From contig NC_135879.1 in the NCBI RefSeq assembly GCF_964194155.1, positions 157,294,001 through 157,358,000 on the forward strand: a DNA stretch of 64,000 nt, written 5' to 3'. Origin of the DNA: Cetorhinus maximus (Eukaryota). The notes beneath the pieces are model-generated. The model was not told the origin of the DNA. It did not search any database and saw only the letters and a list, made by a program, of their open reading frames with translations. Position numbers and translations under genes: made by a program. Every line of letters starts with the position of its first letter. Positions within the stretch are counted from its first letter, which is position 1. Below, in pieces: positions 2,570-60,239 of this stretch.

Positions 2570-2945
2570 TTAGCTGCATTTGCAAAAATTTTGCATCATT
2601 CTTCTATAGTAATCTTCAAAGAACTACCTTATTTGGACTGGCTGCAGTCAACCATATCTCAGCAACAAGCTGATGCCAGCTTCCAGTTGTAACATTTGTA
2701 GTAAGTGCCATGGAGTCAGGCCAGTCTTGTCCCCTCATGACATCTGCACTCGTTGGTATCCATTTTGAAAGCAAGCTGCAACTTCAACATGAGAACATGA
2801 TTTGGCTTGCCTCCCCTACAGAAGGTGACCAAAAAAGTTGCTTCATTATTCTTGATAGAAACATCAGAGGAGGTTTCTAGCTGCCTCGATGGTCCTCGTT
2901 TTCTGCGGGAATACCTGTACTTTAGTGTTTCCGATATTAACCTGT
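2570..2945 (-). mobile_element. Highly degraded RTE-like LINE fragment
   Basis: Minus-strand remnants LQVNIGNTKV, AEIW and KILQMQ-like segments resemble the RTE RT C-terminal motifs (LxINxxKTKV, AETW, RKILxIxW). Frameshifted. Confidence 0.4.
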
Positions 2946-3130
2946 AAGTTCCCTCCAAGCCACACACCATCCTGACTTGGAACGATATCACGGTTCCTTC
3001 ATTGTTGCTGGATCAAAATCCTGAAACTCCCTTCCTAACAGCACCGTCGTCTACCTACACCACATGGACAGCAGCGGCTCAAGAAGGCAGCTCATCATCA
3101 CCTTCTCGAGGGCAATTAGGGATGGACAGC
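2946..3130 (+). mobile_element. 3' fragment of LINE family A abutting the full-length copy
   Basis: gttccctccaagccacacaccatcctgacttgg...gggcaattagggatgg, colinear with about 6050-6250. Confidence 0.8.
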
Positions 3131-3131
3131 A

Positions 3132-6100
3132 GGGGAGGTAGTGGCGTAGTGGTATTGTCACTGGACTTGTAATCCAGAGACCCAGGGTAATTCTCTGGGG
3201 ACCTGGGTTCAAATCCCACCACAGAAGATGGTGAAATTTGAATTCAATAAATTAATGAATTAAGTCTGATGACGATAAAACCATTGTCGTTAAAAACCCA
3301 TCTGGTTCAGTAACTAGACCATTTACCTGGTCTGCCCTACACGTGACTCCAGATCCGCAGCAATGTGGTTGACTCTTAAATGGCCTAGCAAATCACTCAG
3401 TTGTGACAAATTGCTAAAAAGCCTAAAAGGAATGGAACTGGGTGGACCACCTTGCATCGACCTAGGCACTGGAAATGACAACGGAAATCTCAGCCCTGTC
3501 GCATCTAAGTCCTTCTTACTAACATCTGGGGGGGCTGGTGCCAAAATTGGGAGAGCTGTCTCACAGACTAGACAAGCAACAGCCTGACATAGTCATCCTC
3601 ACAGAATCATACCTTATAATGTCCCAGGCACCACCATCACCTTCCACCAGCAGAAGTGGTGGCACAGTGGAATACAGGTGGAAGGGAGTTGCACCAGGAG
3701 TCCTCAACATCTGGACCCCATGAAGTCTCATGGCATCAGGTCAAACATGGGCAAGGAAGCCTCCTGCTGATTACCACATACCGCCCTCCCTCAGCTGATG
3801 AATTAGTGCTCATCCATGTTGAACAGCACTTGGAGGAAGCACTGAGGGTGACAAGAGCGCAGAATGTACTCTGGATGGGAGACTTCAATGTTAATCACCA
3901 AAAGTGGCTCAGTAACACCCCTACTGGCCAAATCCCAAATGACATTGCTGCTAGACTGGGTCTGCGGCAGGTGGGTGAGGGAACCAACAAGAGGGAAAAA
4001 CATACTTGACCTCATCCTCCCCTCCTGCAGATGCATCTGTCCATGACAGTATCGGTAGGAGTGAACACCGCACAGTAGTTCTAGACAATAAGTCCCATCT
4101 TCAAATTGAGGATACCCTCCATCACGTTGTGTGGCACCACCATCGTGCTAAATGGGATAGATTTTGAACAGATCTGGCAACTCAAGACTGGGCATCCATG
4201 AAGCGCTGTGGGCCATCAGCAGCAGCAGCAGAATTGTACTCAACCACAATCTGTAACCTCATGGTCCGGCAGATCTCCCACTCTACCATTACCACCAAGC
4301 TAGGAGATCGACCCTGGTTCAATGAAGAGTGCAGGAGGGCATGCCAGGAGCAGCACCAGGAATACCTAAAAATGAGGTGTCAACCTGGTGAAGCAACAAC
4401 AGGACTACTTGCGTGCCAAACAGCATAAGCAGCAAATGATAGAGCCAAGTGATTCCACAACCAATGGATCAGATCCAAGCTCTACAGTCCTGCCACATCC
4501 AGTCGTGAATGGTGGTGGACGATTAAACAACTCACTGGAAGAGGAGGCTGCACAAATACCACATCCTCAATGATGGAGGAGCCCAGCACATCAGTGCAAA
4601 AGAGAAGGCTGAAGCATTTGCAGCAATCTTTAGCCAGAAGTGCCGAGTGGATGATCCATCTCGGCTTCCTCCGGTGGTCCCCAGCATCACAGATGCCAGT
4701 CTTCAGCCAATTCGATTCATTTCACATTCCACATCAAGAGATGGCTGAAGGCACTGAATACTGCAAAGATTATGGGCCCTGACAACGTCCCCGCAGTAGT
4801 GCTAAAGATTTGTGCTCCAGAACTTGCCGTGCCCCTAGTTAAGCTGTTCCAGTACAGCTACGACACTGGCATCTACCTGGCAATGCAGAAAATTGCCCAG
4901 GTATGTCCTGCACACAAAAAACAGGATAAATCTAACCCGGCCAATTACCACCCCATCAGTCTACACTCAATCATCAATAAAGTGATGGAAGGGGTTATCA
5001 ACAGTGCTATCAAGTGGTACTTGCTTAGCAATAACCTGATCACTGACGCTCAGTTTGGGTTCCGCCAGGGCCACTCAGTTCTGACCTCATTACATCTTGG
5101 CTCAAACATGGACAAAAGAGCTGAACTCCAGAGGTCAGGTGAGAGTGACTGGCCTTGACATCAAGGCAGCATTTGACCAAGTGTGGCATCAAGCAGCCCT
5201 AGCAAAACTGGAGCCACTGGGATTTGGGGGTGGGGAGCTCATCACTGGTTGGAGTCATACCTAGCACAAAAGAAAATGGTTGTGGTTGTTGGAGGTCAGT
5301 CATTTCAGTTCCAGGGTAGTTCCTCAGGGTAGTGTCCTATGCCCAGCCATCTTCAGCTGCTTCATCAATGACCTCCCTTCCATCATAAGGTCAGGAGTGG
5401 GGATGTTTGCTGATGATTGCACAATGTTCAGCACCATTCGCGATGACTCAGATACTGAAGCAGTCCACGTCCAAATGCATCAAGACCTGGACAATATGCA
5501 GGCTTAGGCTGACAAGTGGCAAGTAGCATTACCTGGCACTTGTGTGGCACCAATGACCATCTCCAACAAGAGAGAATCTAACCATCTTGCCCCCTGACAT
5601 TCAAAGGCATTACCATAATTGAATTTCCCACTATCAGCATCCTGGGGGTTACCATTGACCAGAAACTGAACTGGACTAGCCATATAAATACTGTGACCAC
5701 AAGAGCAGGTCAGAGGCTAGGAATCCTGTGACGTGTAAGTCGCCTCCTGACTCCCCAGACTCCAAGTCAGTAGTGTGATGGAATACTCTCCACTTGCCTG
5801 GGTGAGTGCAGCTTCAACAACACTCTACCCTAGATGGTGTCAAGCAGCTAAAGCAGCCCACTTTATTGGCATCTCATCCACAAACATTCACTCCCTCCAC
5901 CACTGACGCACAGTGGCAGCAGTGTCTGCCATCGACAAGATGCACTACATGATCTTATCAAGGCTCCTTAGACAGTATCTTCTAAACCCACGACCACTGC
6001 CATCTAGAAGCACGAGGGCAGCAGGTACATGGGAACCCCACCAGCTAGAAGTTCCCCACCAAGCTGCTCATCATCCTTACTTGGAAATATATTGCCATTC

Positions 6101-6293
6101 CTTCACTGTCACTGGGTCAAAATCCTGGAACTTCCTCCCTAACAGCACTGTGGATGTACCAACAGCACTGTGGATGTACCTACACCACACGGACTGCAGC
6201 AGTTCAAAAAGACAGCTCACCACCACCTCCTCAAGGGAAATTAGAGATGGGCAATAAATGCTGGCCTAGCCATCCCATGAGAGAATTTAAAAA
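3132..6293 (+). mobile_element. Near full-length APE-endonuclease/RT LINE family A with tRNA-derived head and no ORF1; frameshifted
   Basis: A-box tggcgtagtgg at 3142-3152 and B-box ggttcaaatcc at 3206-3216. EN motifs TNIWG / PDIVILTESYL / YRPP / GDFN / LDL from about 3518. RT motifs GPDNVP, NYHPISL, QFGFR, PQGSVL, FADD. A-rich 3' end. Confidence 0.9.
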
Positions 6294-10698: not shown

Positions 10699-12672
10699 TT
10701 TTTTTTTATTCACTCGTGGGATATGGGCTCCGTTGACAAGGCCAGCATTTATTGCCCACCCCAAATTGCCTTGAAGGTGGTGGTGAGCTGCCTTCGTGAA
10801 CCGCTGCAGTCCATAGTGCTGTTAGGAAGGGAGTTCCAGGATTTTGACCCAGCCACAGTGAAGGCAATGTGATATTGTTCCAAGTCATGATTATTCGGAT
10901 AGAATTGATAGTCACATGGAAAAATGTGAATTGATTTGGAAGAGTCAGCATGGATTTGCTGAATGAAAATGGTGCCTAACTAACTTGCTGGAGTTTTTTG
11001 AAGAGGTAATAGAGATGCTTCATGAGGGAAGAGCAGTGTATATGGACTTCCAAAAGGCGTTCGACAAAGTGGCACACAACAGACTTGTGAGGAAAGTTAT
11101 AGGTCATGGAATAAAAGGGACAGTAGCAATGTGAATACAAAATTGGCTGAGGGATAGGAAACAGAGTAATGGGTATTTTTCGAGCTGGAAGTAGGTTTGT
11201 AGTGGAGTTCCCCAGGGGTTGGCATTGGGACCCTTGCGGATGACTCACAACTTGGGAGAATTGTAAACTGTGAGGAGGACAGTGCAGAGCTTCAAAAGGA
11301 CATTGACACATTGATGGAGTGGGCAGATAGGTGGCAGGTGAAGTTCAATGTGGAGAAATGTGAAGTGATACACTTTGGCACAAAGAACATGGAGAAACAG
11401 TATAAAATAAAGGGCATGATTCTAAAGAGTGTGCAGGAACAGAGAGACCTGGGTGTATATGTATATAAGTCATTAAAGGTGGCAGGACAGGTAGAGAGAG
11501 CTGTTTCTAAAGCATACAGTATTCTGGGCTTCATTAACAAGGGCATAGAGCACAAGAGTAGGGAGGTTATGAAGAACTTATATAAGACACTGATTAGACC
11601 TCAGCTGGAGTATTGTGTACAGTTCTGGGCGCCACACTGTAGGAAGGATGTTAACGCATTGGAGAGAGTGCAGAAGAGGTTTATGAGAATAGTCCCAGGG
11701 ATGAGATACTTCAGTTATGAGGAAAGATTGGAAGAGTTGGGACTGTTTTCCTTGGAGAGGAGAAGGCTAAGAGGAGACTTGATAGAAGTTTTCAAAATCA
11801 TGAGGGGTGTGGACAGAGTAGATAGGGCGAAACTGTTCCCGCTTGTAAACGGATCGAGAACCAGAGGGCACAGTTTTAAATTGTTTTGCAAAAGAAGCAA
11901 ATGCGAGGTGAGAAAAAACTTTTTCACACAGCGAGTAGTTAGGGTTTGGAATGCACTGCCTGGAAGTGTAGTGGAGGCAGGTTCAATTGAGGCATTGAAG
12001 AGGACAGTGGATGATTATTTAAATAGCAACAATGTGCAGGGTTATGCAGAAAAATCAGGAGATTGGCACTAAGTTAAAATGCTCAGAGAGCTGGTGCAGA
12101 CACGATGGGCCAAATGGCCGCCTCCTACACCGTAACAATTCTGTGATTGCGTGCGTGGCTTGGTGGGGAAATTGCAGGTCGTGGTGTTCCCATGTGTCTG
12201 CTGCCCTTGTCCTTCTAAGCAGCAGAGGTCACAGGTAGAAAGGTTCTGTGGAAGGAGTCGTGGTGAGTTGGTGCAGTGCATCTTGTATATGATGCCCACT
12301 ACCGCCACTGTGCACCAGTGGTGGTAGTTGGGGTGCCAATGAAATGGGCTGCTTTGCCCTGGATGGTGTTGAGCTCCTTGAGTGTTGATGGAGCTGTACT
12401 TATCCATGCAAGTGGAAAGTATTGTGTTACCCTCCTGACTTGCTTCTGGATAGCAGACACACTTTTGGGAGTCAGGAGGTAATTTACATGCAACAGAATT
12501 CCCTCCTCTGACCTGCACTTGTAGCCTCAGTTTTTATATGGCTGGACCAGTTCAGTTTCTGGTCAATGTACCCTCAGGATGTTGATGGGAGATTCAAAAA
12601 TGGTAATGCCATTGAATGTCAAAGGGAAATGCTTAGGTTCTTTCTTGTTAGAGATGGTCATTGCCTAGCATT
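10699..12672 (-). mobile_element. 3' portion of LINE family A, split by a CR1 insertion (host parts about 10699-10892 and 12149-12672)
   Basis: Reverse complement of the family-A 3' end. Interrupted at ttccaagtcatgatt and resumes at gcgtgcgtggcttggtgggg. Confidence 0.8.
10893..12148 (+). mobile_element. 5'-truncated CR1 LINE (shark HER1-like) with an intact 253-aa RT C-terminal ORF at 11311-12072
   Basis: QHGF, YMDFQKAFDKV, GVPQG remnants, then WQVKFNVEKCEVIHFG...RPQLEYCVQFWAP...RRLRGDLIEVFK...FFTQRVVRVWNALP, typical of CR1 ORF2. CR1-type 3' UTR. Confidence 0.92.
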
Positions 12673-14376: not shown

Positions 14377-15522
14377 TTATTTTTTTATTATTCATTCACG
14401 GGATGTGGGCTTCGCTGGCTGGGCCAGCATTTATTGCTCATCCCTGGTTGCCCTTGAGAAGGTGGTAGTGAGCTGCTTTCTTGAACCGCTAGAATCCATG
14501 TGGTGTAGGTACACCCACAGTGTTGTTAGGAAAGGAGTTCCAGGATTTTGACCCAATGGCAGTGAAGGAACGGCGATATATTTTCAAGCCAGGATGGTGA
14601 GTGACTTGGAGGGGAACTTCCAGGTGGTGATGTTTTCATCTATCCGCTGCCCTTGTCCTTCTAGATGGTAGTGGTCGTGGGTTTGGAAGGTTTTGTCAAA
14701 GGAGCCTTGGTGAATTCCTGCAGTGCATCTTGTAGGTGGTACACACTGCTGCTATTGTGTGTCGGTGGTGGAGGGAGTGAATGTTTGTGGATATGGTGCC
14801 AATCAAGTGGGCTGCTTTGTCCTGGACGGTGTCGAGCTTCTTGAGTGTTGTGGGAGCTGCACTTATCTAGGTAAGTGGGGAGTATTCCATCACAGTCCTG
14901 ACTTGTGTCTCGTAGATGATGGACAGGCTTTGGGGAGTCAGGAAGTGAGTTACTTGTCACAGGATTCCTAACCTCTGACCTGCTGTTGTAGCCACACGAT
15001 TTTTATGGCTAGTCCAGTTCAGTTTCTGGTCAATGATAACCCCCAGGATGCTGGTAGTAGGGGATTCAGTGATGGTAATGCCATTGAACATCAAGGGGCG
15101 ATGGTTAGATTCTCTCTTGTTGGAGATGGTCATTGCCTGGCACTTGTGTGGCCTGAATGTTACCTGCTGTTTGTCAGCCCAGCCTGGATATTGTCTAGGT
15201 CCTGCTGCATTTTGACATGGACTGCTTCAGTATCTGAGGAATCTCACATGGTGCTGAACATTGTGCAATCATCAACGAACATCTCCACTTCTGACCTTAT
15301 GATGGAAGGAAGGTCATTGATGAAACAGTTGAAGATGGTTGGGCCTAGGACACTACCCTGAGGAACTCCTGCAGTGATGCCCTGGAGCTGAGATGACTGA
15401 CCTCCAACAACCACAACCATCTTCCTTTGTGTTAGGTATGACTCCGACCCGTAGAGAGTTTCCCCCTTGATTCCCATTGACTCCATTTTTGCTAGAGCTC
15501 CTTGATGCCACACTTGGTCAAA
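14377..15522 (-). mobile_element. 5'-truncated LINE family A copy (RT C-terminal half and 3' tail)
   Basis: Minus ORF 15244-15513 WHQGALAK...GVPQGSVLGPTIFNCFINDLP...FVDD, colinear with about 5175-6293. Confidence 0.9.
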
Positions 15523-16569: not shown

Positions 16570-17640
16570 ATTGCAATGCTGGTGGCACTCCCTATTTCAG
16601 TTAAACATTTCAGCCAAGTGAGATAGTGCTGTTGACGATGAAACTGAAGAGGGAAAAGTTAGAATCAGGTGATCGGCGATGAGAAGCAATCCAGTTCTTC
16701 CTATATTAACCTGTACCTTAGGAGAGTTAACATGGCAAGAAAAATACCTCGAGAGACAAAAGTAATCCCACACTTAAAGGCACTGAAGCACCTATTACAC
16801 AGATACAAATATTACGTATGATGGTTTTGAAAAGGTTTGCACCCCTTAATAATCGATGTCTGAATGTTCCATATGACGTGTAACCATATCTGAGGAATGT
16901 TTGCACATTTTTTTTAATATGGTGCTGTAGGAGCTTTAACAAATGTTGGCTTCCTAGCTGAAAAGCCAGAATTGGCTTTGGAATCATTGGAAGTGAGAAT
17001 GGAAAGGGGCAAGGTAGAAAGGGGATTAAAGGTGATGATGATTGGGCATGGGGTGAAGCATGAGCAAAATAGTAAGTGGAGGTGGGCAAACATAATGGTA
17101 GGCAAAGCGGTGAAGGGGGAGTAGGTAGTAAGGAGAATGAGGTGGTAATTGATAGTGAAAAGATTGTGCATACAGCAAACAAATGGGAGTAAGGTATTTG
17201 AAAGGATGGATACACTTGAGGGTGGAAACCAAATGTGAGTAATACCATTGGGAAATTGACTAGTCAGGGAAAAAAAGATGGACAAATACCTCGCAAGCAT
17301 CAATATTGGTAGTGAGATGTGCAGATATTTCTCATGTATGGATGCATGCCAAAGGAATATTCAGACATCGGTATTATGGAGTGCAAACCTTTTTAAAACC
17401 ATCATGCGTAATATTTTTACCTGTGTAATAGGTACCTATTAACAAGTTTGGGATAACTTGCATCTCTATAGACGTATTTTTCTTGGCACGTTGAAACTCT
17501 CCTAAGTACAGATTAATATAGAGGGAACTGTATTGCTTTCTATCCCTGATCACCAGATATTAATTTCTGCTGCTCAGTTTCATTATCAATGGCATTTCCT
17601 CACTTGGCTGAAATGGAGAGTGTGCTACCAAAACCACAAT
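16570..17640. repeat. Long imperfect inverted repeat (arms of about 330 bp, purine-rich spacer of about 400 bp); probable old foldback/MITE element
   Basis: 16606 catttcagccaagtgag pairs with ctcacttggctgaaatg ending 17615; atgatggttttgaaaaggtttgcac pairs with gtgcaaacctttttaaaaccatcat. Arms about 16570-16908 and 17317-17640. Confidence 0.85.
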
Positions 17641-23252: not shown

Positions 23253-23899
23253 GGGCAGAATCTTCTGTTTGGTGTGTGGGGGCAGGCCACGCATGCCGAC
23301 ATGTAAACTGACGAATGGTGATGTTGCACGTCATTCTGATCTTCCGTTTGGCGGGTGCGCACCGGAGTCGGCTGCGCGCCCGCTGAACTATCAAAGGCCT
23401 GTTAAGGCCGTTAATGAACTAATTAAAGCAATTGTCAGGGCTGCCCGTCCAACCTTAAGGTTGGAGGGCAGGTGACGAGCCCAGGCGGCCTTTGCATTTC
23501 TCGTGAAATCTCATCCACGGGCGGGATGAGGTTTCATGAAGGGTTTATTAATTGAATAAAAATTTTAATGAAAATTCATAATTATGTCCCAGCTCATGTG
23601 ACACTGTCACATGAGGGGACATGTCTGAATAATTTTATTTTTTTATTTTTTACCATTTTTGACACTGAACTTAATCTCCCTGAGGCACGGATCTGCCTCA
23701 GGCAGAGTCCTGCACTCTTTCACGCACATGCGCGAAAGAGCGCAGGCCCCGACTCTCTCTCCCTCCCCTCGCATGCACAGGTAGCGCTGAGCATTACCGG
23801 GCGCATGTCATGCTGGGCCCACCCACGTAAAATGGCAGGCGGCGATCGGCTCCACGCCTGCTCCCAACCGGCCCACCCGACGGGGAGAAAATTCTCCCC
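23253..23899 (-). mobile_element. CpG-rich PIF/Harbinger-type MITE (647 bp), opposite orientation to the copies at 38601, 47265 and 47990
   Basis: TIRs gggcagaatctt / aaaattctcccc; 3-bp TSD tat; internal ctccctgaggca...tgcctcagg palindrome. Strand is relative only. Confidence 0.85.
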
Positions 23900-35539: not shown

Positions 35540-35720
35540 TAAGATAAAAGCAAAATACTGCGGATGCTGGAAATCGGAAACAAAAATTGCTGGAAAAACT
35601 CAGCAGGTCAGCAGAACAGTTCTGTAGAAGAGTCAAACCGACTCGAAACATTAACTCTGTCTTTCTCTCCACAGATGCTGCCAGACCTGCTAAGTTTTTC
35701 CAGCAATTTTTGTTTTTGTT
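35540..35720 (+). mobile_element. Penelope-derived short inverted-repeat element with 14-bp TSD and hammerhead-like core
   Basis: TSD taagatttaaaggc at 35526-35539 and 35721-35734. Arms acaaaaattgctggaaaaactcagcaggtc / gacctgctaagtttttccagcaatttttgt. Core ctgtaga-a-gagtc-aaacc-gactc-gaaac at 35622-35649. Confidence 0.75.
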
Positions 35721-36593: not shown

Positions 36594-37727
36594 GGTGTTA
36601 AGCTGTGATTGGGTACGCGAGGATGAACATTTTCTTTGCTGTCCGTAGTGAATGCAGTGAAGCTAAACTGGCCAAGAGACTAATGCCTCTTTTTTTAGAA
36701 GATAGCTTCTTTCATAGTTTGTTGTTCAAGAACAAAAGTTTAATATTTGGCAAGGTTGAACATCACTTCTAATTATGAACTGGGTATACTTTTTATATAT
36801 TTTAAAACTGAATTACATTCTTTGTTGATTTTGTTGCCCGCATCAAGGTAAAAGATGTCAATGTTGGGGCATGAATCACTTATTCATATTTTCATCTCCC
36901 AACATCAGCAAAAATGTCCAAGTCGGTCATGGTAAGGTCTTACACAGTGTCAAACTCTCTTTAATATGCTTAATCATATGCACCCATTACAGCAGCAGCA
37001 GGAATTTAGTTGCTTCCTACATAAACCGTCCTTGTGCCTATTTTGAGCATATTTAGCACAGATTAGTGAACAGTTTAATGCTGTGGATATTTGCCCACAA
37101 GAAAGTTGACTCAGATTGCTCAAACATATTTCACTTTCAGACCTGGGAAAGCTGAATTACTTTGCTTGGGATCATACAGAGATCCTAAAGGTGAAAACGA
37201 ATTGCTGAACCCAATCCCTTGACATATTTCTTAATCCCTTCAAAGAAATTTCCTGTCTGCTGGTTTAAATAATTTAAAGCCCATTAAAACTTGAAATCCC
37301 ACATGTCTATATGCCTTGTGTTAAAATTTAGAATGGGATTTTCCGGCCCCTCCCACTGGTCCTGCCAAAGTCAACGGAGATTTGAATGGCTTGCCGCATC
37401 CTCCACAGGGAAACCCGCCATGGTGGGGCTGGAATACCCTGGCCTTAGTGTTTGTGTTCTGAGTAATCTTTCCTTTTTATATTTTTTCCAATATAAAATG
37501 CCGACCACTGCTGCAAGGTATTGAAATTACTAGTCTCAAGTTGCTTAGACTTACAATAAAGCAAAATAAGAAAAACATTTTATTTGGTCTGGCAATAAAT
37601 ACTGCTTATTTTGAACCGATGAACATGTTTCTTCCACTTCATGAGAAAAATGAATTCTAGTACTATATAAAGCTGGATGACCTAAAATGCTAATGCTAAT
37701 AATGTGTTTTTCCTGCTGCTTTAACAG

Positions 37728-38057
37728 GTGACAATTACTGACAATGGCAGCATCCCAAAATCTACCATTGCTAGAGTTATAGTGAAGGTTTTGGATGAAA
37801 ATGACAACAAACCTCAGTTCTTGCAAAAGTTCTATAAAATCAAACTTCCAGAACGAATAAAACCAGAACGAGAGAAATCAGTTAAGCGGGAACCCATCTT
37901 TAGAGTAATCGCTGCTGATAAGGATGAGGGCCCAAATGCAGAGATATCTTACAGTATTGAAGAGGGAGATGAACAAGGCAAGTTCTTCATTGAGCCTAAA
38001 ACTGGCGTTGTCTCATCTAAGAAGTTTTCTGCAGCTGGGGAATATGATATTCTTACA
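37728..38057 (+). CDS. FAT1: FAT1 coding exon (330 nt, phase 0-0; equivalent to human exon 5)
   Basis: ttaacag|GTG...ACA|gtgagt. [43 protein letters not shown]...[13 protein letters not shown]. Has DxNDNxP and ADxDxG cadherin motifs and closely matches FAT1 as I recall it. Confidence 0.97.
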
Positions 38058-38600: not shown

Positions 38601-39270
38601 GGGCAGGATTTTGCCCTCGGCAGGGGTGGGCAGGAGTCGCCCGCCACCCGTGATCGGCTCCACATGGCGATTTCGCACGAGCGGGCCAATTAAGGCCCAC
38701 CCTGTGCAGATTGTGAGCGGCAGTGTTGAGCGCTGCCTGTGCAGGTGGGGGGAGGAGGGAGAGCCAGTCCTAGCACGCAGTTTGCGCATGCGTGAGGAAG
38801 AGTGCTTCAGTCTCCCTAAGGCACGGAGCTGCCTCAGGGAGATTGAAACGCTGTGTTAAAAAAAAGAGAATATAAATTTAATAAAACATGTTATCTCATG
38901 TGACTCTGTCACATGAGCTGGGGCATGTTTTAAAATCAAAAATAAAGTTTTTATTTAATTTTTATTTGCTTTAGGAAACCTCATCCCGCTCGTGGATAAG
39001 GTTTCGTAAAACATATAAAAGTCACTTGGTCTTTTCGCCTGCCCGCCAACCATAAGGTTGAACAGGCAGCGTAAATTTGAATTTAACTAGATTGTTAATG
39101 GCCTTAATAGGCCTTTTAATTATTGGCGGGTGCGCAGCCATCTCCGGTGCACGCCTGCCGAACGAAATATCGCAAGACTGCGCGGTGATGTCGGGGTGCA
39201 TGTCCAACGTCATCGTGCGTCATTTTATGCTCGGGCATGTCGGGCGTACGCCGAGCGTAATATTCTGCCC
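38601..39270 (+). mobile_element. CpG-rich PIF/Harbinger-type MITE (670 bp)
   Basis: TIRs gggcaggatttt / aatattctgccc; TSD atg at 38598-38600 and 39271-39273. Confidence 0.85.
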
Positions 39271-40216
39271 ATGGAGAAGAGCCCTCAAACAAGCTTATGC
39301 AGAAAGGATATAATGTCTGTTTCAAGTGCAGATAAAGAACACATATTTTGTCCTTATCAATATGATGGACAATGCATTTCCAGCTGGCAATGTGTACATG
39401 CTGCCTGGCTACCATACTGGGGCCTTGGTAGTTCATGTATTTTGCGCAAAGACAGGTCCTCTTCTCATTTCTGTAGGCCTTGCTGTCCTCCAATTTCCTC
39501 TTCAGTTGCTTGTAAGAGCCTTCCATTTTCAATTTCAGTATGACTAGGGGAAAGAATACATGAGGTGTTTTCTCATTGCCTTCCTCATGTGCCCTTAAAG
39601 GAAAAACATGCCCGCTTCCCAAAGAATCCTTCAGTTGTAAGCGGTTATTGCCCCTCAAGTTTCTAGCTCTTTTGTCAACACCGAAAATTTGCTAGTCCTG
39701 CCTTTGCCTTGGCTTGAAACCCTGAGCCTGAGACCCTTACCTGGGTTGGGACGGCTCGCAAAAGAGCAAGGACGACCTTTGTGGTCACAAAACACCCTGC
39801 TACTGTGAAGCAACCTAAAACTGGGTGTTGTACCGACCAATTTCTAGGTCATATTCTTTGTTTACAAAGTAGGGTATCTCAAAATAGCTCACAGAAACAC
39901 CATCACATCTGATATAATGTGCCATTATTAGTTTCCTGAAGATTAAGTAGGCCATATAGAGTGAAACATTTGAAAATGGCTACCCTTGGAGACTGATTTC
40001 AGGTACCTTTATAAGCCTACAGTACAATTTTCTACTTGATGTGTGCATGGGCAATGTTAATTTCCTAGGTGCAGAGTAAAGTGATTAATGGATGCCTGGA
40101 AACTTCAAGAAGTGACTGCGTACCATTTACTTAAAATGAATTATACAATGCTGGCATCTCCTTCAGCAACATGCATATTAGGGTTTTCAGTTAAAAGATT
40201 CATAATTTTTTCACAG

Positions 40217-40427
40217 ATAAAAGCTGTGGATAATGGACGCCCTCAGAAATCATCGGCAACTCGGCTGCACATTGAATGGATTGTGAAACCCAAGCCATCC
40301 CCTTTGCCATGGAATTTTGAAGAATCTTCATTTTCCTTTAGTGTCATGGAGAGTGATCCAGTTACTCACATGGTTGGAGTCATTGCTGTTGAACCTGCTG
40401 GCACTACCCTCTGGTTTGATATCACAG
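40217..40427 (+). CDS. FAT1: FAT1 coding exon (211 nt, phase 0-1; equivalent to human exon 6)
   Basis: tcacag|ATA AAA GCT...ATC ACA G|gtaagg. [27 protein letters not shown]...TLWFDITG. Confidence 0.97.
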
Positions 40428-43185
40428 GTAAGGAATGAGATGGCGTTCTTGCTAGTTAGGTTTTAATAATTTCCAAAGTAAACACCTCACTGAATTGGCT
40501 ACTTTGAAATATTTAATTGAATTCCATTGGGTACAAATTTCTTTTGGTTTTTCTTTCTTCTTGTCATTTTTCTCCCATCATCTCCTCTTTTAAATATGCC
40601 AACTCCCCCTGGGTACTTTTCAATAGGGCAAGGCATCCACCTTGCCTGCTGACTGGATAGTGAATTGTCTTCAGAAATCATTCACGGTTTTGAATCTTAA
40701 TTTTGAACCTTAAGTGGATTGTGGGAACCAAACCGCCCCCATGTCATGAAATTCTGGAGAATTGATGTTTTCCTTCAATGTCACATATGCAAGTCTTGAT
40801 TTTTAACATTGCACATGTCACATCCCACAAGATTCATTGGCTATCAATCAGGAGCAGAAACTCTGATTTTTTTTTAACAACCCTAATCTAGAGACACAGA
40901 TGATTATTATAGTGTCTTACTACTTTCTGAGCACGATCAGGCATATCACCCTGTGGTGCCTTGGAATGTCATGTCCCTCTGGCTCAATTACTGTTTTAAT
41001 AAACTAATTGATTGCTTTATCTTTTAAACTTCAAGTGCATTTTTTCATCTTTTTCCTGGAATCACTTTGATTATTAATGTATTATTCAATGTATAGAAAT
41101 GCTTAAATAAACAAATGGAATATGAAATACAGCAGGAACAGCAAACAATACTGCTGGCTTTGACATGCCCACAAATCAGACCCCAAACTGAAACGAAGTT
41201 TAATTTACAGAATGTGCATACAATTTACTGAATTTATATATCTACAAATAAATTCAATGTGCTGTTTGTAGACTGAATGGGTTCATAATAATAAATCTAA
41301 AATTACTTATTTTTGAAAATCAGGTTTGTAATTTAATTTTTCTTCTTGTGATCTTTACTATGTAACAGACTTGTGTGCTAACATAGGAAATAAAACAAAA
41401 AAAAAACAAGGCCCACAGACAAAAACATGTAATTGAGATTGTATAATGTTTTTCAGATATAAATTATCTAAATGTATTTAAATCAAATGTTTCAGAATTG
41501 TTGATTATGCCCAACCAAGGGATTTGTCCTGACTTGTCCTGCACTGACTTTGTCAGTGCAATCATGTGCATGTTAATTTGTGAATTGCAGCTTGAGTAAA
41601 ACCAGGAAAGTAAAGGATGATTTTGCAATCTGACACTCCTGGCAGAGAGCAGCGCTGAAAGGGACTACGTCACAGGAAGTCACAGGTGTGCAGCCTGTGA
41701 TTTTTCATCCATTCATTTAAATGGACAAAAAAAATCACAATGTATTGTCTGTGAATGCTGTTTCCTATCAGGAGTGCTGGATTGTGGAATCACTCTCATA
41801 ATGGATTTCTTTGGTTGACCTCTATTGTGTATCTTACCTTTAACTAGATTCTCGTTAACTAACCTCATCTCTTTTCTTTTCTATCCTTGCTGCCTTTTCT
41901 GTCTTCGACTGTGTTTCTGGCTCTGCAAGGTGACAAACAAGCTAGAGAAATGTTTTATATCTTTCAGATGGCTTGTGACTCGAACTGTACAGCAGAAGGT
42001 ATCTGCTGCCATCTCATAATTATACTTTGGTACTACATTATGAGATCTACTAATTAAATTTAGCAATGGAAATTATATTCTTTTTGCTCTGTTCGTAAAC
42101 TAAGAAAAACATGTTGCCCAAATAACTTATACTCATGTAGTAAGTATCATTGAATTAGCAAGTTAAACATATTGTATATTGTCAGTGGTTGCATATGCTG
42201 CTGCTTTTATGTTTAATTCAGTTGTTCTCCTCCGTTAATTCTATGTATATATCTGTCTATCAATATATTAAAAATATTACATCTATAGGTACCATCGGTA
42301 ACTTCCTCAATTATAATTTCTAAGTCTATTATCTATGGTGGAGACTGTCTATGCAAGCTTGTTGTCATTTCTCCCTTCTCCTTAATGGTATGCTGCAGCA
42401 CCACCATTGGCCGAAAGGTATAATTACGACACACGTTTACATAGACTGTTTCTATAATAAATGTGGAACTTATAATTAAAATAGATTATAACCCTTTAAA
42501 ATGAGGACTGAATTATCTCTGCATACCATGGTCCAGGTTGATAATTAACCTGCTAATCCTTTCAACATCTCCCTGCTATTCACCAAAGGGGGAATAGGTG
42601 TCAGAAGATATGAAACAAAAAACAAACTAGCATTTATATATAAACAATGGCCAAATTGGCTGAGTTACACCCTCTCAGATAAATTTGTGTTTCGTTTAGT
42701 TTCAGAACCATGCACTGTTTTGCTGAAATTGAAAGGGTTAGGAACTAAACAAAAAATTGAAGTTCTATTTAAGATATAAAATTGTTGGATTGATCAGCTA
42801 TTTTAACTTTTTACTCTGATTGGAAGGTAACTTTTAATAATGAAGGAAGCAATCAAAATTTGCCTACTCTGTGATTTTAACCCCTAATTAGATGCTTAGA
42901 TTGCTACCTCTCAGTGACCTTTATACCTGAAGTTATTAATATATTCATAAATTGAATTTGTACTGATTTGCTGATGACCTCAATGGTAGTTTTCTGAGCT
43001 CCTCCATGAAATAACAAATCATTTTAAATTAAATCATTTCCCACTGACATATCCACCAAGAAACTAGTAACATCACACTTGGGAATTGCAGTAGTATATT
43101 TTCAAGTACTGCAGAGTCTATTTTACAACTTTGCTTCCCCTTGCAAAATGGTCTACGTTGTGCTAAGGTCAAGGTAAATGCACAC

Positions 43186-44833
43186 CAGGCTTGCCAAACT
43201 TTTTGCTTTGTGGGGCATTTGCATTTTCTTCTCCCTCAAGGGACTGATGAGCAAATTTCAGAAAGATAAAGTTCGGCACAACTTTAAACTGATTTTTAAA
43301 AAAATATATTGGGGCCGTAAGAAAAGAAACAATTGCATGGCAAAAACAAAGCAATGTCATAGCAATAAGTTGTCAAATAAAAAAAGAATAATTAATAAAA
43401 ATGACCAGGGTGAGAGCCTGGGAGTGTGCGTGCCAGACTAACCCACTTCTTAGGGTGTTTACTCACTCAACCTCACCCACTATGAGTGGGTATGTGTTTA
43501 TGAGCTGCTGTGGGGCGGTGAGAGTAAGTGAGAAACCTGAGACTGGCAGTAAGGCAGACACACAATCACACCCCTCTTTCTCCTCGCCCCCACCCCCCCA
43601 CGCTCTTTCTCTCGCCCTCCTCCCCCGCCCTTTCTCGCGCTGTCCCCCCGCCCTTTCTCTCGCCCTCCTCCCCCGCCCTTCCTCTCGCCCTCCTCCCCCG
43701 CCCTTCCTCTCGGCCTCCTCCCCCGCCCTTCGTCTCGCCCTCCTCCCCCGCCCATCCTCTCGCCCTCCTCCCCCGCCCTTCCTCTCGCCCTCCTCCCCCG
43801 CCCTTCCTCTCGCCCTCCTCCCCCGCCCTTCCTCTCGCCCTCCTCCCCCGCCCTTCCTCTCGCCCTCCTCCCCCGCCCTTCCTCTCGCCCTCCTCCCCCG
43901 CCCTTCCTCTCGCCCTCCTCCCCCGCCCTTTCTCTCGCCCTCGCCCCGCCCTTTCTCTCGCCCTCGCCCCGCCCTTTCTCTCGCCCTCGCCCCGCCCTTT
44001 CTCTCGCCCTCGCCCCGCCCTTTCTCTCGCCCTCGCCCCGCCCTTTCTCTCGCCCTCGCCCCGCCCTTTCTCTCGCCCTCGCCCCGCCCTTTCTCTCGCC
44101 CTCGCCCCGCCCTTTCTCTCGCCCCGCCCTTTCTCTCGCCCCGCCCTTTCTCTCGCCCCGCCCTTTCCCTCGCCCCGCCCTTTCCCTCGCCCCGCCCTTT
44201 CCCTCGCCCCGCCCTTTCCCTCGCCCCGCCCTTTCCCTCGCCCCTCCTCCCCCGCCCTTTCCCTCGCCCTCCTCCCCCGCCCTTTCTCTCGCCCCTCCTC
44301 CCCCGCCCTTTCTCTCGCCCCTCCTCCCCCGCCCTTTCTCTCGCCCCTCCTCCCCGCCCTCTCTCTCACCCTCCTCCTCCCCCCGCCCTCCTCCTCCCCC
44401 CGCCCTCCTCCTCCCCCCGCCCTATCTGCCCCACACAGACACACATGCACTCAATCTCTCACACGCTCGATCTCTCACACGCAGCAGTTAGCACCCCCCC
44501 AAAGCCACCTGATCTGGGCCTCTGCAGCGGCCCACTCCCAGGCCTTACAGCCAGCCCCTCCTCCCTGTGGCCCCGGTGCTTTGGCCCCCCAGGCCCACTC
44601 CCTGCCCATCAGTCCCCCTGGGCCTGAACTCTCCGCCACTGGTGCTCGGTGCTCCTTCTCTCCCACATTTGCTATTGATAGGCTCACTAGTGAGCCTATC
44701 AGCAGCAAAGGCCTTTGTTTGGAGGAGCTGCTTTTGAAGAATCTTCCATCCCAACTTGCCTGTTTGACTGGCATTTTGAAAACTGGCTCTGGGACATAAA
44801 GGGGCTTTGCAGGCCACACATTAAACCAGCCTG
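43186..44833. mobile_element. hAT (Charlie-like) non-autonomous element hosting a minisatellite
   Basis: Ends caggcttgccaaa ... ttaaaccagcctg; 8-bp near-TSD atgcacac / atgtgcac (6 of 8 match); hAT-like subterminal ggggccgtaa and gcaggccacac. Confidence 0.6.
43600..44422. repeat. C/T-rich minisatellite with blocks of 25-, 23-, 17- and 26-bp units
   Basis: cctctcgccctcctcccccgccctt (25), tctctcgccctcgccccgccctt (23), ctttctctcgccccgcc (17), ctttctctcgcccctcctcccccgcc (26). Confidence 0.95.
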
Positions 44834-46553: not shown

Positions 46554-46928
46554 CTTTTTTTTTATTTGATCTTGGGATGTGGGCGTCTTTGGCTAGGCCA
46601 GCATTTACTGCCCATCCCTAATTGCCTTTGTTCAGAGGGCATTTTCTTTTAGGAGTCAACCACATTGCTGTGGGTCTGGAGTCACATATAGGCCAGACCA
46701 GGTAAGGGTGGCAGATATCCTTCCCTAAAGGACATTAGTGAACCAGATGGGTTTTTACAACAAAAGATAATGGTTTTCTGGTCATCATCAGGCTTTTAAT
46801 TCCAGATTTTTATTGAATTCAAATTCCACCATTTGCCATGATGGGATTCAAACCCAGGTCCCCAGAGCATTACCCTGGGTTTCTGGATTACTAGTCCAGC
46901 GACAATGCCACTATGCCATCGCCTCCCC
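46554..46928 (-). mobile_element. Full-length family-A-derived bipartite tRNA SINE
   Basis: Reverse complement reads ggggaggcgatggcatagtgg...gggtttgaatccc...gccctctgaa|caaaggcaattagggatgggc...poly(A). Confidence 0.88.
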
Positions 46929-47264
46929 TCAATTTGCTCAGAGCTGTGTAATTTTGGGAAATGGAGGCAAATTCGGCAACCTGATAATGTTTACTACACA
47001 GAAATTCCTAGGGTGCATCAGTAGCTTGCAAGATAGATAAATGTTTAGGTGCCTCTATTTTTGTCATCAAATTGAGCTTGTTAACCAAGTTTGGTTGTTT
47101 TTCAAAATTATTTGAAGAAGACTGAGAGAACAAATTTCCAAATTCAAGTAAAATGTACATGAAGTTGATCTTTTCAAAACAATTACATAATTTCATTTCT
47201 GTCTGAGTGGACGATAAAAGCAGGATAGACCACTGTGGCCCCTTTCAATGATTATAAATTCCCT

Positions 47265-47956
47265 GGGCAGGAATTTCGGGTCATTGGGCGGGCGCGGCAG
47301 GTGGGCCCAGGAGCAGCCAGGAATCGGTCCACTACCCCCGATTAGCCCCCAACTGCGATTTCACGCTGGCTGGCCAGTTGCTGGCCAGCCAGCGTGAAAG
47401 ATGCGCTGCGAAGCTCAGCACTGCCGCGTTGGGGGCGGGAAGGGGGCGAGTACAAAAGTCTGCACATGCGCAGGGGAGCGCTAAGTGGAAGCTCCCTGAA
47501 GGCAGGGATTTGCCTCAGGGACCTGAGGAATTTTAAACTCAAAATTAAAGATTTTGACAATTCGGGAAAAAAATCCCCATGTAGGACTCACTTCACATGA
47601 ACAGAAACATAATAAAAAATTGTGTCAAAACATTTTTAAAAAATTAATGTCGGAAACCTGACCCCACCCCTGGACGAGGTTCCCTAAAAAATCCAAAGGC
47701 TGCCTGGCCGATTCTCCCGCTTGTCAATCGTAAGGTTGGACGGGCAGCGAGAAATTGTAGTTAATTGAAACTTTAATGGCCTTATTAGGCCTCTTAATTG
47801 TCGGCGGGCGTACTGCAGACTCCCACACGCACCTGCTGACCAAAACATCGTGCAAATGCGCGATGATGTCAGGATGCTTGCCCGACATCATCACGCGCTA
47901 CTTTATGCCCAATCGTGTCAGGTGCACGCCCGCCTGCGGGACGTAAAACCCTGCCC
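47265..47956 (+). mobile_element. CpG-rich PIF/Harbinger-type MITE
   Basis: TIRs gggcaggaattt / aaaaccctgccc; TSD cct. Confidence 0.85.
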
Positions 47957-47989
47957 CCTGTATACTTCAGAAAAAGCAAAATGTACAAT

Positions 47990-48667
47990 GGGCAGAATCT
48001 TGCCCTTGTCGGATGGGCTGTGCGGTGGCAGTTGGGAAGCTGCCCGCGATCGAGGCCGGACCGCGATTTCATGCTGGCGGGCCAATTAAGGCCCGTCCAG
48101 TGTGAAATGCGAGTGGTAGCGCTCAGTGCCTAGCCTGTGCGGCGGGGGGAGAGGGCAAGCAGGGCAAGCATGAACTTCGCACTTTCACGTGAGCGTGCGC
48201 TTCATAATCTCCCTGAGGCATAGGGCTGCCTCAGGGAGATGAAGCATTTTTTTAAAAAAAAAATATAGAAATTAAAAATGTAATAAGACATGTCTCCTCA
48301 TGTGACTCTGTTGCATGAGCAGGGACATGTTGTTAATTAAATTTTAAAATTTTTATTTTACTTTTATTTGCTTTAGGAAACCTCATCCTGCCCATGGATG
48401 TGGTTTCCTAATAAGTGCAAAGGTCACTTTGCCTTTTCACCTGCCCGCCAACAATAAGGTTGAACGGGCAGCGAAAAATTTATTTTAATTACTTTTCTAA
48501 TGGCCTTAATAGGCCTTTTAATTCTGCCGACTCCGGAGTGCGCCCGACAACCGAAATGTCTCGCGAGTGCGTGATGACACTGAGATGCTCACTCGATGTC
48601 ATCGCGCGTCATTTTACGCTCTGTTGGGTTGGGCACATACCTGCCCAACGAGCTAAAAATTTTGCCT
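47990..48667 (+). mobile_element. CpG-rich PIF/Harbinger-type MITE, 33 bp from the previous copy
   Basis: TIRs gggcagaatctt / aaaattttgcct; colinear with 38601-39270; TSD imperfect. Confidence 0.82.
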
Positions 48668-50071: not shown

Positions 50072-50514
50072 CCCCACTCCAAATGTTCAGGCATATACTG
50101 TTCCCCTCCTGTCACTGCTGACAAATACTAAACTAACAGTGAGGCAAACCTCTCAACAACCCATTCCCACTCCCTAGTCCTATGAAACTCCATGTTCCCC
50201 TTGCAATATAATGCCAAGCTAAATTATTGTATTTTTCATAATTTTATGTTTTCTTATTAATTGTGAAAATAAAATGTGGTTCTGAACCCGTTGAAGCACT
50301 GGTTAAAACAAAAAAGCCTCCCTTTTCTCTGAAGGTCCTTATTATGCAAAAAGAAGCCTTTTTCTGTGAAGTCACTTTGTCCAAGGTTCATTTCTTGTAT
50401 CTTTTTGCATGTTCAGTGAAGCAAGACCAATTTTTTTCATTTGTATGCAATCTGATGGCTGAGCAAGATCTGCTTATTTTTGTTATATCTACCTTTTCAT
50501 ATTCTTAAATCCAG

Positions 50515-50654
50515 GTGGCAACTATGACAGCCGATTTGATGTGGACAAAGGTAGTGGAACCATCATTGTTGCGAGACCACTTGATGCAGAACAGAAATCA
50601 AATTACAACTTGACAGTGGAGGCAACAGATGGAACAATGTCCATCCGCACTCAG
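50515..50654 (+). CDS. FAT1: FAT1 coding exon (140 nt, phase 1-0; equivalent to human exon 7)
   Basis: atccag|GT GGC AAC...ACT CAG|gtaatt. (G)GNYDSRFDVDKGSGTIIVARPLDAEQKSNYNLTVEATDGTMSIRTQ. Confidence 0.97.
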
Positions 50655-51856
50655 GTAATTGAATTCCTGATGAAGGATTTAGATTCAGCGAAGAAAATTT
50701 ACTTAAGTTCTTTTTTAGCCATTAGTGTTGCAAAACAGGAATTTCATTTTGAAGTTATTAGTTTATAGCTGTACAACATCTTCAATGTTGACCTGCTTTC
50801 TGGTGAAAGATTAATCTTGTGCTTCTCTGTCTATTTCATGTTCATTCAGAGGGTTTTTGTTTTATAAATTATCAATAGCATGTCATTTTTCAGTTTGTAG
50901 TTTTGAATTTGGCCTGCAGTTTGATCATTCTTTACTTAGCTTTTAATAAAAGCTGTAATAGATTGTTTTTGTTTTCTGCAGTAAAAAAAAATTGTACACA
51001 AATCTGGTCTTGTGCAGAGTTGCACAAGGTATTTTTTGTGGGTGAGGCATGGTTTGAATGTTACACAGCGAAGTACAACGTTTAAAAAAAAATAGACCAC
51101 TAAAGTTCCAAGTAATTATTTGTCTGCCATATCTAGGAACTTGGAAAAATTCAAGTAGTCAGTTTTAAATGAGATTTTAAAACATGCACATAAAATGGCC
51201 TGTAAAGCATAATATCCAGGTTCAAAAGTGGAACTAGAAACATTTATTTATGATGAGAAATTGCTACAGTACGAAACAGATTTCAATTTCAACACTAGCA
51301 CTGAACTGAAACTCTTTAAGATCCACTTCTGAAATAATAGTGACTACGATGCTCAGACTTGTGGAGTGTAAAGAAACAAAATTAATACAATTCTGAGATT
51401 TTATAAATGTTTTCTGAAGAAGAAAACTCCAAAGAGGAGGTTCTCTGTCCATGCTATTTGGACATTATATTAGTTCTAATAGTGGGACTGTAGCCGATTT
51501 GAATTTCATATTTTATAAATGTGAAAGCTGCAAATAAATTTTATGTTGCTGAAATAAAACATTGCAAGATTACAAGTAAATTGATATAGAAAAGAAACAG
51601 TAAGAGGTCAGTGAATAATTTGCTGACTTCTAAAGATAATGGAGTGAATTAGTGGTGTTTTATTCTGTTGAAAGGCAGAACTTGGTTAACAAATATCTGG
51701 GTAGTACTGGCTGGAAAGATTCTCAGCAAAGGATGCACAGTTTCACAGTTGTGTATGAACATTTTTGTAGCATAGGCAAAGGTCTTGTGACAGGATGACA
51801 AGATGGCAGGTCAGTGAACCCTTCTCTTGAATGGTGCATGAACTGGGGTTTAAGAA

Positions 51857-56635: not shown

Positions 56636-58304
56636 TCCTGACCACAACCAGCTTTTTACACTCTGGAACAAAGAGGCGAGTTGGCCAAAAGTATTTCCCC
56701 AACAGCTCACTGCTAGGATTTTTCATCTGAAATAGGTAAATGAAGCAATATTTGTTTTAAATAATATAATTTTCCCCCTGAACATTGATGGGGAAATGTT
56801 TTGTATGGCTTTGGGGAGCGAAGAGAATTAGTTCTTTCCTCTCATTCCCTCAAACTATGGGCAGCCCCTCTACTCAGCCTCTTGATGCCTCTTTCCAAAG
56901 CTAAGATGCCCAAGGACCATCCTCCAGCACTAAAACAGGCACAACATTCTGGAAATGGACAGGAGAAGCTGTGAAGTGTATGTATGCAGCTGTGCTCCTG
57001 GTCATCAACATCTTGGTTTTCTGAATATTAGCTATTGCTAGAGAGCAGCAGCCAGAAGACCCCATGTCCCATTGATTGAGCTGGATAGGGTGGGGTGGGG
57101 TGAGAGGAGTATTCTGTTATCAGATTCAGCACTTCCAGAGTACAACAAATAATAGCCCCTCAAATGGTGCTGTGCTGATTCTTTCCTGGCAGTTGCAACT
57201 AGCACCATGTCCCAGAAGCTGATGTGCATCGTGATAAGTTGACATGTTACGGACACTGATGTATCTACATATTTGTTTGAGGCAAATTCCTTCTCTCACT
57301 CTATTCGATCATACTAATAAATGTGACAGTGTTTGCAGATTGATGACATAAACTCTGTGAACTAGATGTTCTGAAACTTAGAATGATATCGCACATGTGT
57401 AATCGTATGGCACATGTCACTCATATTCTAAGCGTCAAAGCAAACTGGATTCATACTGCTATAGGTTGGCATTACTTTCAGTTTGCCTATTCAGCAAGAA
57501 TGACCTGCTGACAATATCATGAAGTATAAAAGCAGCAATGGAGCGGTACGGAATTTAGAAAGCTGGTAACTGTATAGAGTTGTGCAAAATAAGCATTCCT
57601 TACATACTTAATAAATTAACTAATTGGAGATAAGTCACATATGATGTCATTGTGATTTTCAATTTCTGTTCGTCTTTCTGAATGGCTGGATGAACAAGAG
57701 CTTTTTTTTTAATACAAAGTGAATTGCTAGTCAGCATTACATCTACCCTCAGCAGTAGGAGTCAATGGAATGATAGTGAAGACAGGCATGCTGTTATCTA
57801 AAGTTCTGGAAATGTTTAGGAGTTATCAGCTGAATATAAGGAGTTTCTGAGTAACAATATTTTGGATTCTTCATGATTAGGCAAAGCTTGTTAACAGTTA
57901 AGCACTTAAGAGTGCACTAAATTTTGCTAATAACTGTACTTGGACAAAAGAGGGAAAAGAAAGGAAGCTACTTAAAATATAAATTGTAATCTGGCAATTA
58001 TGAAACATTTAGATTTTCACTTGAGCTTTCATAGGCAGATATTTTGCTTTAATTCATTCACCTAAACTGATTACCCAAGTATGCATTCACCTGATCAGAA
58101 TTTTGAAAAGTATAATAAGCACTCTTTGTGTTGATAGTTCACTTCGTAATACATATATAATTCTAACACAGTCTTTCTGCATCATAAACGTGAAGTGACT
58201 AAAGCCATGTCATTGACTTATCAAGGCTGCGATTGTATTAAGGTACTGTTAAAGAAACATAATGGAATTACAGTTATCATATGTAAAATTTTACTTCATT
58301 TCAG

Positions 58305-58580
58305 GTATACATTAAAGTAATTGATACAAATGACCATCGGCCTGTGTTTTCAAAACCAAAATATGAAGTCAATATCCCAGAAGACACAATTCCTGAAACA
58401 ATAATTCTGCAAGTTAGTGCCAGTGATAAGGATGAGAAGAACAAGATGATTTATATTCTTCAAAGCAGCACAGATCCAAACAGTCTGAAAAAATTTAGGC
58501 TGGATCCTGGGACTGGGATTCTCTTTACAGCTGAAAGGCTGGACCATGAGACCAAGCATCAGCATGTGCTTACTTTAATG
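58305..58580 (+). CDS. FAT1: FAT1 coding exon (276 nt, phase 0-0; equivalent to human exon 8)
   Basis: tttcag|GTA TAC ATT...TTA ATG|gtaagt. VYIKVIDTNDHRPVFSKPKYEVNIPED...LDHETKHQHVLTLM. Confidence 0.97.
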
Positions 58581-60028: not shown

Positions 60029-60239
60029 GTTCGAGATCAAGATGTTCCTGTCAAACGCAATTATGTGAGAGTCATTATCAATGTTGAAGATACCAACGAC
60101 CATGCACCATGGTTTACAAGTTCTTCGTATACTGGTCATGTGTATGAATCTGCTGCAGTTGACTCAGCGGTGCTCCAGGTTACTGCACTGGATAAAGATA
60201 AAGGCCGAAATGCAGAAGTTACTTACTCTATTGAATCAG
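60029..60239 (+). CDS. FAT1: FAT1 coding exon (211 nt, phase 0-1; equivalent to human exon 9)
   Basis: ttcccaag|GTT CGA GAT...GAA TCA G|gtaatt. [29 protein letters not shown]...[19 protein letters not shown]. Confidence 0.97.

Follow-up and report, generated by a model that had tools for sequence, protein, structure and literature searches.

In the window analysed here, a 64,000-nt stretch of the genome of the shark Cetorhinus maximus (GCF_964194155.1, NC_135879.1:157,294,001-157,358,000, forward strand), a decayed long interspersed nuclear element (LINE) of the elasmobranch Zenon family occupies positions 3132-6293. The family starts with a tRNA-type head, and its sense strand is depleted of the T clusters at which RNA polymerase III (Pol III) terminates. 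We suggest that this is an autonomous LINE transcribed end to end by Pol III, a reading to which we assign a probability of about 65%. Selection against such terminators over the length of the coding element is supported by the sequence: the head is the 5' end of the family, T clusters are depleted, control elements are not depleted, and the reading frame has no usable AUG. The parts of the element and the related repeats in the window are as follows.

3132-6293, + strand: decayed but full-length elasmobranch Zenon LINE, matching the family majority at ~89-90% identity and carrying frameshifts, stops and deletions
3132-3226, + strand: tRNA-derived head, tRNA-Thr(AGT)-like with a long variable arm (ARAGORN, 114.8 on the family majority), the 5' end of the family
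3142-3152, + strand: Pol III A box, from the sequence
3206-3216, + strand: Pol III B box, from the sequence, CpG-decayed in this copy
3227-3412, + strand: leader common to the LINE and a local short interspersed nuclear element (SINE), with deletions in this copy
3381-3400, + strand: what is left of a hairpin (majority nt 288-313) whose 7-nt loop resembles that of an anticodon; this copy has lost the lower stem and carries mutations in the upper one
3413-3416, + strand: GCTA, in-frame codon with predicted pairing to the hairpin loop (candidate internal ribosome entry site, or IRES, pseudoknot)
3416-6244, + strand: broken single open reading frame (ORF) with an Arg-rich N-terminal stretch, an APE endonuclease from ~3507, a reverse transcriptase (RT) and a stop at 6242-6244 (Pfam Exo_endo_phos_2 and RVT_1; motifs)
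4162-4165, + strand: the lone T4 run, a product of CpG decay after insertion
6245-6293, + strand: 3' hairpin region, partly deleted, with AATAAA at 6253-6258 and a short T3A5 tail
52487-54218, + strand: second copy of the family, truncated, with two T4 runs
14382-15522, - strand: antisense 3' fragment of the family, its sense strand without T4 in 14400-15522
46570-46929, - strand: SINE made of the first 292 nt of the LINE joined to its last ~65 nt
10893-12148, + strand: CR1 fragment serving as control, with seven T4+ runs

T clusters are depleted from the sense strand

The window copy contains a single T4+ run, as counted in the first-pass annotation of this DNA, compared with 18 A4+, 11 C4+ and 8 G4+ runs. 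Base shuffles (5000) gave 5.9 T4+ runs (P=0.014), and 26.6 T3+ runs where 15 are present (P=0.003). CpG decay had been proposed as the origin of the lone run, and this is borne out by the site reading TTTCG in 30, TTTTG in 26 and TTTCA in 19 of the 82 fragments listed. The absence of AAAA from the forward strand of the antisense copy (14400-15522; zero A4+ runs) and the count of at least seven T4+ runs in the CR1 fragment (seven) were reproduced as well. For the second copy, the reported TTTCG is present at 53078, but two further T4 runs at 52722 and 53578 had gone unmentioned.

We then turn to the family majority, a sequence of 3283 nt comprising the head, the leader, a single open frame 975 codons long that holds the APE and RT motifs, the 3' hairpin and an A tail. 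Its runs of exactly three and of four or more letters number 5 and 0 for T, 32 and 14 for A, 38 and 11 for C, and 32 and 9 for G, leaving no T4 terminator inside it. The expectation for T4+ runs is 4.3 under a base shuffle (P=0.011) and 3.0 under context-free codon choice (P=0.04). For T3+ runs, 5 are observed against 21.3 in base shuffles (0/5000 as low) and 11.1 in dinucleotide shuffles (P=0.009-0.026), with 4 against 12.7 when synonymous codons are shuffled (P=0.0002). The T4 deficit of the majority holds relative to base composition and context-free codon choice, and fails under the synonymous and dinucleotide nulls, whose values are given below. Taken by itself the T4 count is marginal; T clusters as a whole are depleted far more than chance would give.

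Human Pol III is described as stopping also at the interrupted signals T3VT2, T2VT3, TVT3, T3VT and T2VT2 (PMC3141230), and we counted T4, T3VT, TVT3 and T2VT2 as terminator-type motifs after that source. The majority contains 2 such motifs against 13.1 expected (0/1500 base shuffles) and 7.2 expected under a dinucleotide shuffle (P=0.012), and its ORF contains 1 against 6.5 (0/1500 synonymous shuffles), while the same patterns spelled with A, C and G occur 36, 41 and 30 times. Both surviving motifs are T2GT2, a type reported to be very weak for human Pol III (PMC3141230). The shortage of T3+ runs and interrupted terminators is confined to the sense strand. The T-T correlation is 0.70 at lag 1, 0.79 at lag 2 and ~1 beyond, and NTY codons that precede a T end in C in 12/12 cases. 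Phe codon bias is not significant, TTC outnumbering TTT by 14 to 4 in a manner not distinct from other NNY codons (P=0.30); the Phe content of 2.7% lies within the 2.4-4.2% range of 20 homologues.

Control elements show no comparable depletion

A CR1 majority, built from the same genome by the same copy-mapping method, has 11 T4+ runs against 8.1 expected and 30 motifs against 23.5. Intact L1/Tx1-type ORF2s of the genome have 16 and 17 T4+ runs against 12.3 expected, and a second L1/Tx1-type family with 22% T has 5 against 5.6 and 6 against 6.1. The same-genome comparison begun with the CR1 fragment therefore stands, since neither CR1 nor the two L1/Tx1-type families show a comparable T4 gap. 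Outside this genome, we kept the 64 of 80 related metagenome loci that had a matching ORF of at least 330 aa, dropping 16. All 64 related ORFs, from other eukaryotes, contain at least two T4+ runs, and their observed/expected ratio for T3 has a median of 1.11 and a minimum of 0.54, compared with 0.22 for the shark element. Because neither the same-genome nor the outside controls are depleted, the tRNA-headed family is the only one of the tested set to show the depletion.

These controls bear on the idea that the element is non-autonomous or the pattern an artefact, with long SINE-LINE chimeras mobilised in trans and T scarcity arising from base content or consensus building. The majority-building step does smooth runs, and we found no intact copy among 150 RT matches in the C. 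maximus genome, the longest open frame being 549 aa. However, the CR1 majority made in the same way is not depleted, decayed single copies are themselves T4-poor (84 runs against 382 expected over 224 kb, the copies not being independent), the frame was under purifying selection, and the head is the rule rather than a rare chimera. The CR1 control, the motif counts, the single copies and the selection on the frame largely refute this explanation, which we consider very improbable.

One of the L1/Tx1-type families is a young LINE with an intact 1303-aa ORF2 (L250:3421-7329, and L251), often found in arrays with a spacing of ~7.1-7.5 kb; its L251 copy has long simple repeats on its flanks.

The tRNA-type head is the 5' end of the family

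In a first look at the 4.0-Gb C. maximus genome, the head region drew 14,496 candidates and a piece of the RT 224,976, figures that are not copy numbers. The loci retrieved were 39 selected by the head, 40 selected by the RT and 40 more. The head forms a sharp, shared 5' boundary in 21 full-length copies, upstream of which the flanks are unrelated. Among the 40 RT-selected copies, chosen without regard to the head, 12 are continuous to within 100 nt of it, the rest being truncated or interrupted. The description of the element as a tRNA-headed LINE is therefore correct in the sense that the head is the true 5' end of the family.

Recognition of the head as a tRNA is confined to the family majority: ARAGORN finds no tRNA anywhere in the window, and Rfam gives only sub-threshold matches, that of the window copy's head being to tRNA-Sec (E=0.29). 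In published shark and ray consensuses the A and B boxes are recognisable by eye while the sequence between them diverges (PMC13343379). Like a SINE2, the element begins with a tRNA-derived head that contains A and B boxes, and it has no internal T4, with only the two weak T2GT2 motifs in 3283 nt. It lacks the SINE2 trait of being short and non-coding, being 3.3 kb long with an APE-RT frame under purifying selection. In the related metagenome loci, ARAGORN run on 56/80 returned one tRNA, antisense and inside the ORF, and a B-box scan of 64 returned one match, also inside the ORF; many of these contigs may stop short of the 5' end of the element.

Each of the 32 full-length copies shares 88-95% identity with their majority, and the tree of these copies is star-like; two apparent older subfamilies resolved into the same family. 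The single ORF encodes APE and RT, there is no ORF1, and the sequence upstream of the head is unrelated flank. The first 400 letters of the family match published elasmobranch Zenon consensuses by eye, and 7/7 elasmobranch Zenon rows of Supplementary Table 2 of PMC13343379 start with the same head over that length; in two hagfish rows and one coelacanth row of the same source the head is not visible in the first 400 letters. Judged by this likeness, the element is a member of the catalogued elasmobranch Zenon family. The closest full-coverage protein matches of the majority ORF are 38-47% identical and mostly unnamed, the named ones including invertebrates. In a quick tree of 32 rows, none with a Zenon label, the RT groups with amphioxus, crustacean and butterfly proteins, apart from shark CR1.

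Directly 5' of the head lies a further member of the family, represented by its truncated 3' end (2940-3131).

An AUG-less frame and a candidate leader pseudoknot

The APE-RT frame was under purifying selection, as 29/47 lineage variants (present in at least 20% of copies) are synonymous against 28% expected (P=2e-6), although a few CpG sites passed the filter. The master frame runs for about 280 codons without an in-frame AUG, its first ATG lying at codon 290, deep in the protein. In 21/71 copies a stop variant stands in frame at majority nt 319, just 5' of the GCU codon, which places the start downstream of nt 319. A 3-nt deletion that keeps the frame lies just 3' of the GCU in 12 copies. 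Of the eight CpGs in majority nt 345-430, seven fall within Arg codons of the ORF frame, which suggests that this segment is translated.

Majority nt 288-313 are predicted to form a hairpin (pair probabilities 0.89-0.96) whose loop reads CUAGCAA; a spacer separates it from the in-frame GCUA at nt 326. Contigs of four sequencing runs show no variant at ≥12% in the hairpin and several in the spacer. The anticodon-like loop could pair with the in-frame GCU, as in domain 3 of a dicistrovirus IRES, where PKI mimics an anticodon paired to its codon (PMC10275262). Such IRESs have been raised as a possibility for LINEs (PMC3894237). That translation would take this particular route is a tentative proposal on our part, which we judge less likely than not. 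A three-way fold at the start of the endonuclease was not significant (z-scores -1.10 and 0.11).

The lower stem of the hairpin has been lost repeatedly, through a 12-nt deletion flanked by short direct repeats (majority nt 278-295; ~3378 in the window) that is found in 14/31 head-selected and 7/38 other copies.

An alternative start is offered by a conserved AUG at majority nt 348, in another frame and 20 nt downstream, from which a Pol III transcript might be translated with a -1 frameshift near the start of the endonuclease and without any pseudoknot. This AUG follows an A-rich stretch in 62/71 copies and is kept in 6/7 published Zenon consensus rows (PMC13343379), and an A-AAG lies at the first strand of the endonuclease. 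Yet we saw no X-XXY-YYZ slippery site, the CpG phase favours the ORF frame over nt 345-430, and an uncapped RNA would still need a means of recruiting ribosomes. We regard this start as distinctly unlikely.

Weighing transcription by Pol III

If Pol III does transcribe the element, TFIIIC would bind the A and B boxes of the head, and the polymerase would traverse ~3.3 kb from which T clusters have been purged, continue across the A tail and stop at the first T run of the flank, as it does for Alu. The uncapped RNA would be translated without an AUG, most likely through the anticodon-mimicking hairpin loop paired to the in-frame GCU, after which the encoded protein would bind the 3' hairpin and the RNA would be inserted by target-primed reverse transcription. 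The lineage was probably born from a Zenon ORF that acquired the 5' portion of a SINE of Deu type. In its most complete form this scheme describes a self-mobilising "protein-coding SINE", whose 3.3-kb Pol III transcript would be translated cap- and AUG-free via a tRNA-mimicking, dicistrovirus-like IRES in a Deu-type leader; all of these parts being true together seems to us doubtful. Throughout, we infer the polymerase, the cap status and the start site from sequence.

The main competitor is a conventional Zenon transcribed by RNA polymerase II (Pol II), in which the head would be a captured relic or serve another role (insulator, or end of the RT template) and U clusters would be avoided post-transcriptionally, through U-rich decay elements, nucleases cutting at UU or UA, immune sensing or cryptic splicing. 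As a rule, Pol II transcribes autonomous LINEs (PMC5786205), the leader contains the conserved out-of-frame AUG, and UU (observed/expected 0.70) and UA (0.63) are both low. The depletion nevertheless exceeds the dinucleotide null and extends to TNT spacing, and it is absent from three LINE families of Pol II type in this genome. A capped RNA would also be expected to retain an AUG start, and the A and B boxes stay recognisable, by eye, in shark and ray consensus heads that diverge between the boxes. We judge Pol II transcription of the element to be unlikely.

A number of observations weigh against Pol III transcription or against the proposed route of translation. The T4 count of the majority is not significantly low when 2.1 runs are expected (synonymous shuffle, P=0.08) or 1.5 (dinucleotide shuffle, P=0.16-0.20), and the low UU ratio accounts for part of the signal, UA being low as well. 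Most of the 64 outside ORFs are richer in T than the shark element; only 3/64 have a similar T content, their T3 observed/expected ratios are 0.55-0.75, and none of the three is among the closest protein relatives (43-47% identity, compared as protein only). To these are added the lack of an intact copy and of convincing target-site duplications in 18 copies. RNA-type contigs of 4+4 sequencing runs cover the element and are uninformative on start, strand and polymerase. As for the leader, the pseudoknot motif was defined post hoc and arises in 1.9% of shuffles, no compensatory change or covariation was seen in the loop-GCU pairing, the lower stem is deleted in 7/38 copies not selected by the head, and the hairpin is retained in a SINE variant that needs no translation. 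In the published SquAca_Zenon-1 consensus the GCU is, by eye, one base out of frame, and the out-of-frame AUG is widely conserved. The first-pass proposal of selection for Pol III read-through is accordingly upheld by the head, the depletion of T3+ runs and interrupted motifs, the undepleted controls and the lack of a usable AUG, but draws no support from the T4 statistic (P 0.08-0.2 in the codon and dinucleotide nulls) or from Phe codon usage.

The 3' end and derived SINEs

The 3' hairpin has a z-score of -2.83 in one natural copy (L229). A-rich tails follow 90 LINE ends, 40/90 with T2+ at the T/A border and 23/90 with T4+ before the A run. Across all fetched genome DNA (946 kb), T4+A4+ junctions number 158 (~29 of them in tails) and A4+T4+ junctions 40, which suggests that A tails drift into TnAn after insertion. 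Because T4+A4+ is enriched throughout the fetched DNA, slippage after insertion is a better explanation for the T4+ of the tails than a built-in 3' terminator. Tail T4+ is weakly associated with one of the 11 variant sites tested (P=0.016), and short internal TA tracts are unconverted; a sub-lineage with a terminal T5 may exist.

Six SINE-like copies in the genome loci consist of the first 292 nt of the LINE and its last ~65 nt; by their sequence, the local SINEs are the two ends of the LINE joined. The junction lies before the hairpin, at majority nt 292, in 6/6 of these SINEs, and after the hairpin and before the GCU in contigs of other organisms. The LINE leader (3227-3412) is probably the Deu domain of SacSINE1.

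Relation to known elements

The usual view assigns LINEs to Pol II and treats Pol III retroposons as non-coding. If our reading is right, a dominant vertebrate LINE would make its mRNA by Pol III and have it translated without cap or AUG, breaking the Pol II/Pol III division. Nature would thereby supply a model of initiation independent of a cap and of Pol III reading over long distances, and LINEs and SINEs would be connected directly, by one deletion. Should the leader act as an IRES, this would also suggest a function for the conserved body domain of such SINEs.

R2 is a protein-coding non-LTR (long terminal repeat) element made by a polymerase other than Pol II, with an uncapped RNA and unconventional initiation. 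It is co-transcribed with rRNA and has a ribozyme (PMC5786205). R2 rides Pol I from ribosomal DNA and self-cleaves, whereas the shark element carries a promoter of Pol III type inside its own sequence and encodes an APE endonuclease.

The elasmobranch Zenon LINEs catalogued by Stuart et al. 2026 (CarCar, RhiTyp, ScyCan, HypSab and SquAca _Zenon; PMC13343379) share the 5' 400 nt by eye, the length of ~3.3 kb, the lack of ORF1, APE and RT, and the A tail. A few intact copies are listed there for ray and dogfish. The main text of that paper contains no mention of tRNA, Pol III or a start codon, and the head, T-cluster avoidance and AUG-less frame of Zenon are not described there. The family itself is known, and what is new here, relative to that text, is the terminator avoidance, the SINE-type head and the AUG-less frame. 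Butterfly Zenon and its SIDE Persaeus (PMC6740152) are likewise a case of a single-ORF Zenon with internal-deletion derivatives, but Persaeus is reported there to have no tRNA homology and no Pol III promoter, unlike the headed shark element. SacSINE1 and other Deu-SINEs (PMC5499810, PMC4824008) share the tRNA head, a LINE-derived tail and probably the central domain, the tail donor named there being L2-2_CM (PMC5499810). SINEs are non-coding and "cannot encode a protein" (PMC5786205), whereas the shark element has a 2.9-kb ORF between body and tail.

With domain 3/PKI of the dicistrovirus intergenic region (IGR) IRES, the shark leader shares a predicted anticodon-loop hairpin, a variable spacer, candidate pairing to an in-frame codon and a presumed non-AUG start; unlike in that IRES, motifs PKII/PKIII, L1.1, SLIV and SLV were not identified in the leader, for which only pseudoknot-free folds were computed. 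Other LINEs with tRNA-like sequence are RTE-1_DAn, mentioned in passing and with no Pol III claim (PMC5786205), and tRNA/LINE-1 chimeras, which are single events (21 loci) with mostly antisense tRNA halves (PMC13174262). Our literature search, which missed most subscription papers and Repbase, found no published account of a Pol III-driven autonomous LINE, nor of the SINE-type head, terminator avoidance or AUG-less frame of Zenon.

Other features of the window

The LINE at 3132-6293 lies in the same orientation as a multi-cadherin gene with exons on the + strand at 37725-38051, 40085-40438, 50463-50768, 58287-58598 and 60017-60346, two of which were tested against Pfam Cadherin; we presume the gene to be FAT-like. 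The window also contains several copies, some inverted, of a CpG-rich repeat family (23338-23799, 38667-39252 and 47593-48621), an inverted pair of ~300 nt at 16606-17615, a short palindrome at 35578-35715 and a long C/T-rich simple repeat at 43390-44600.

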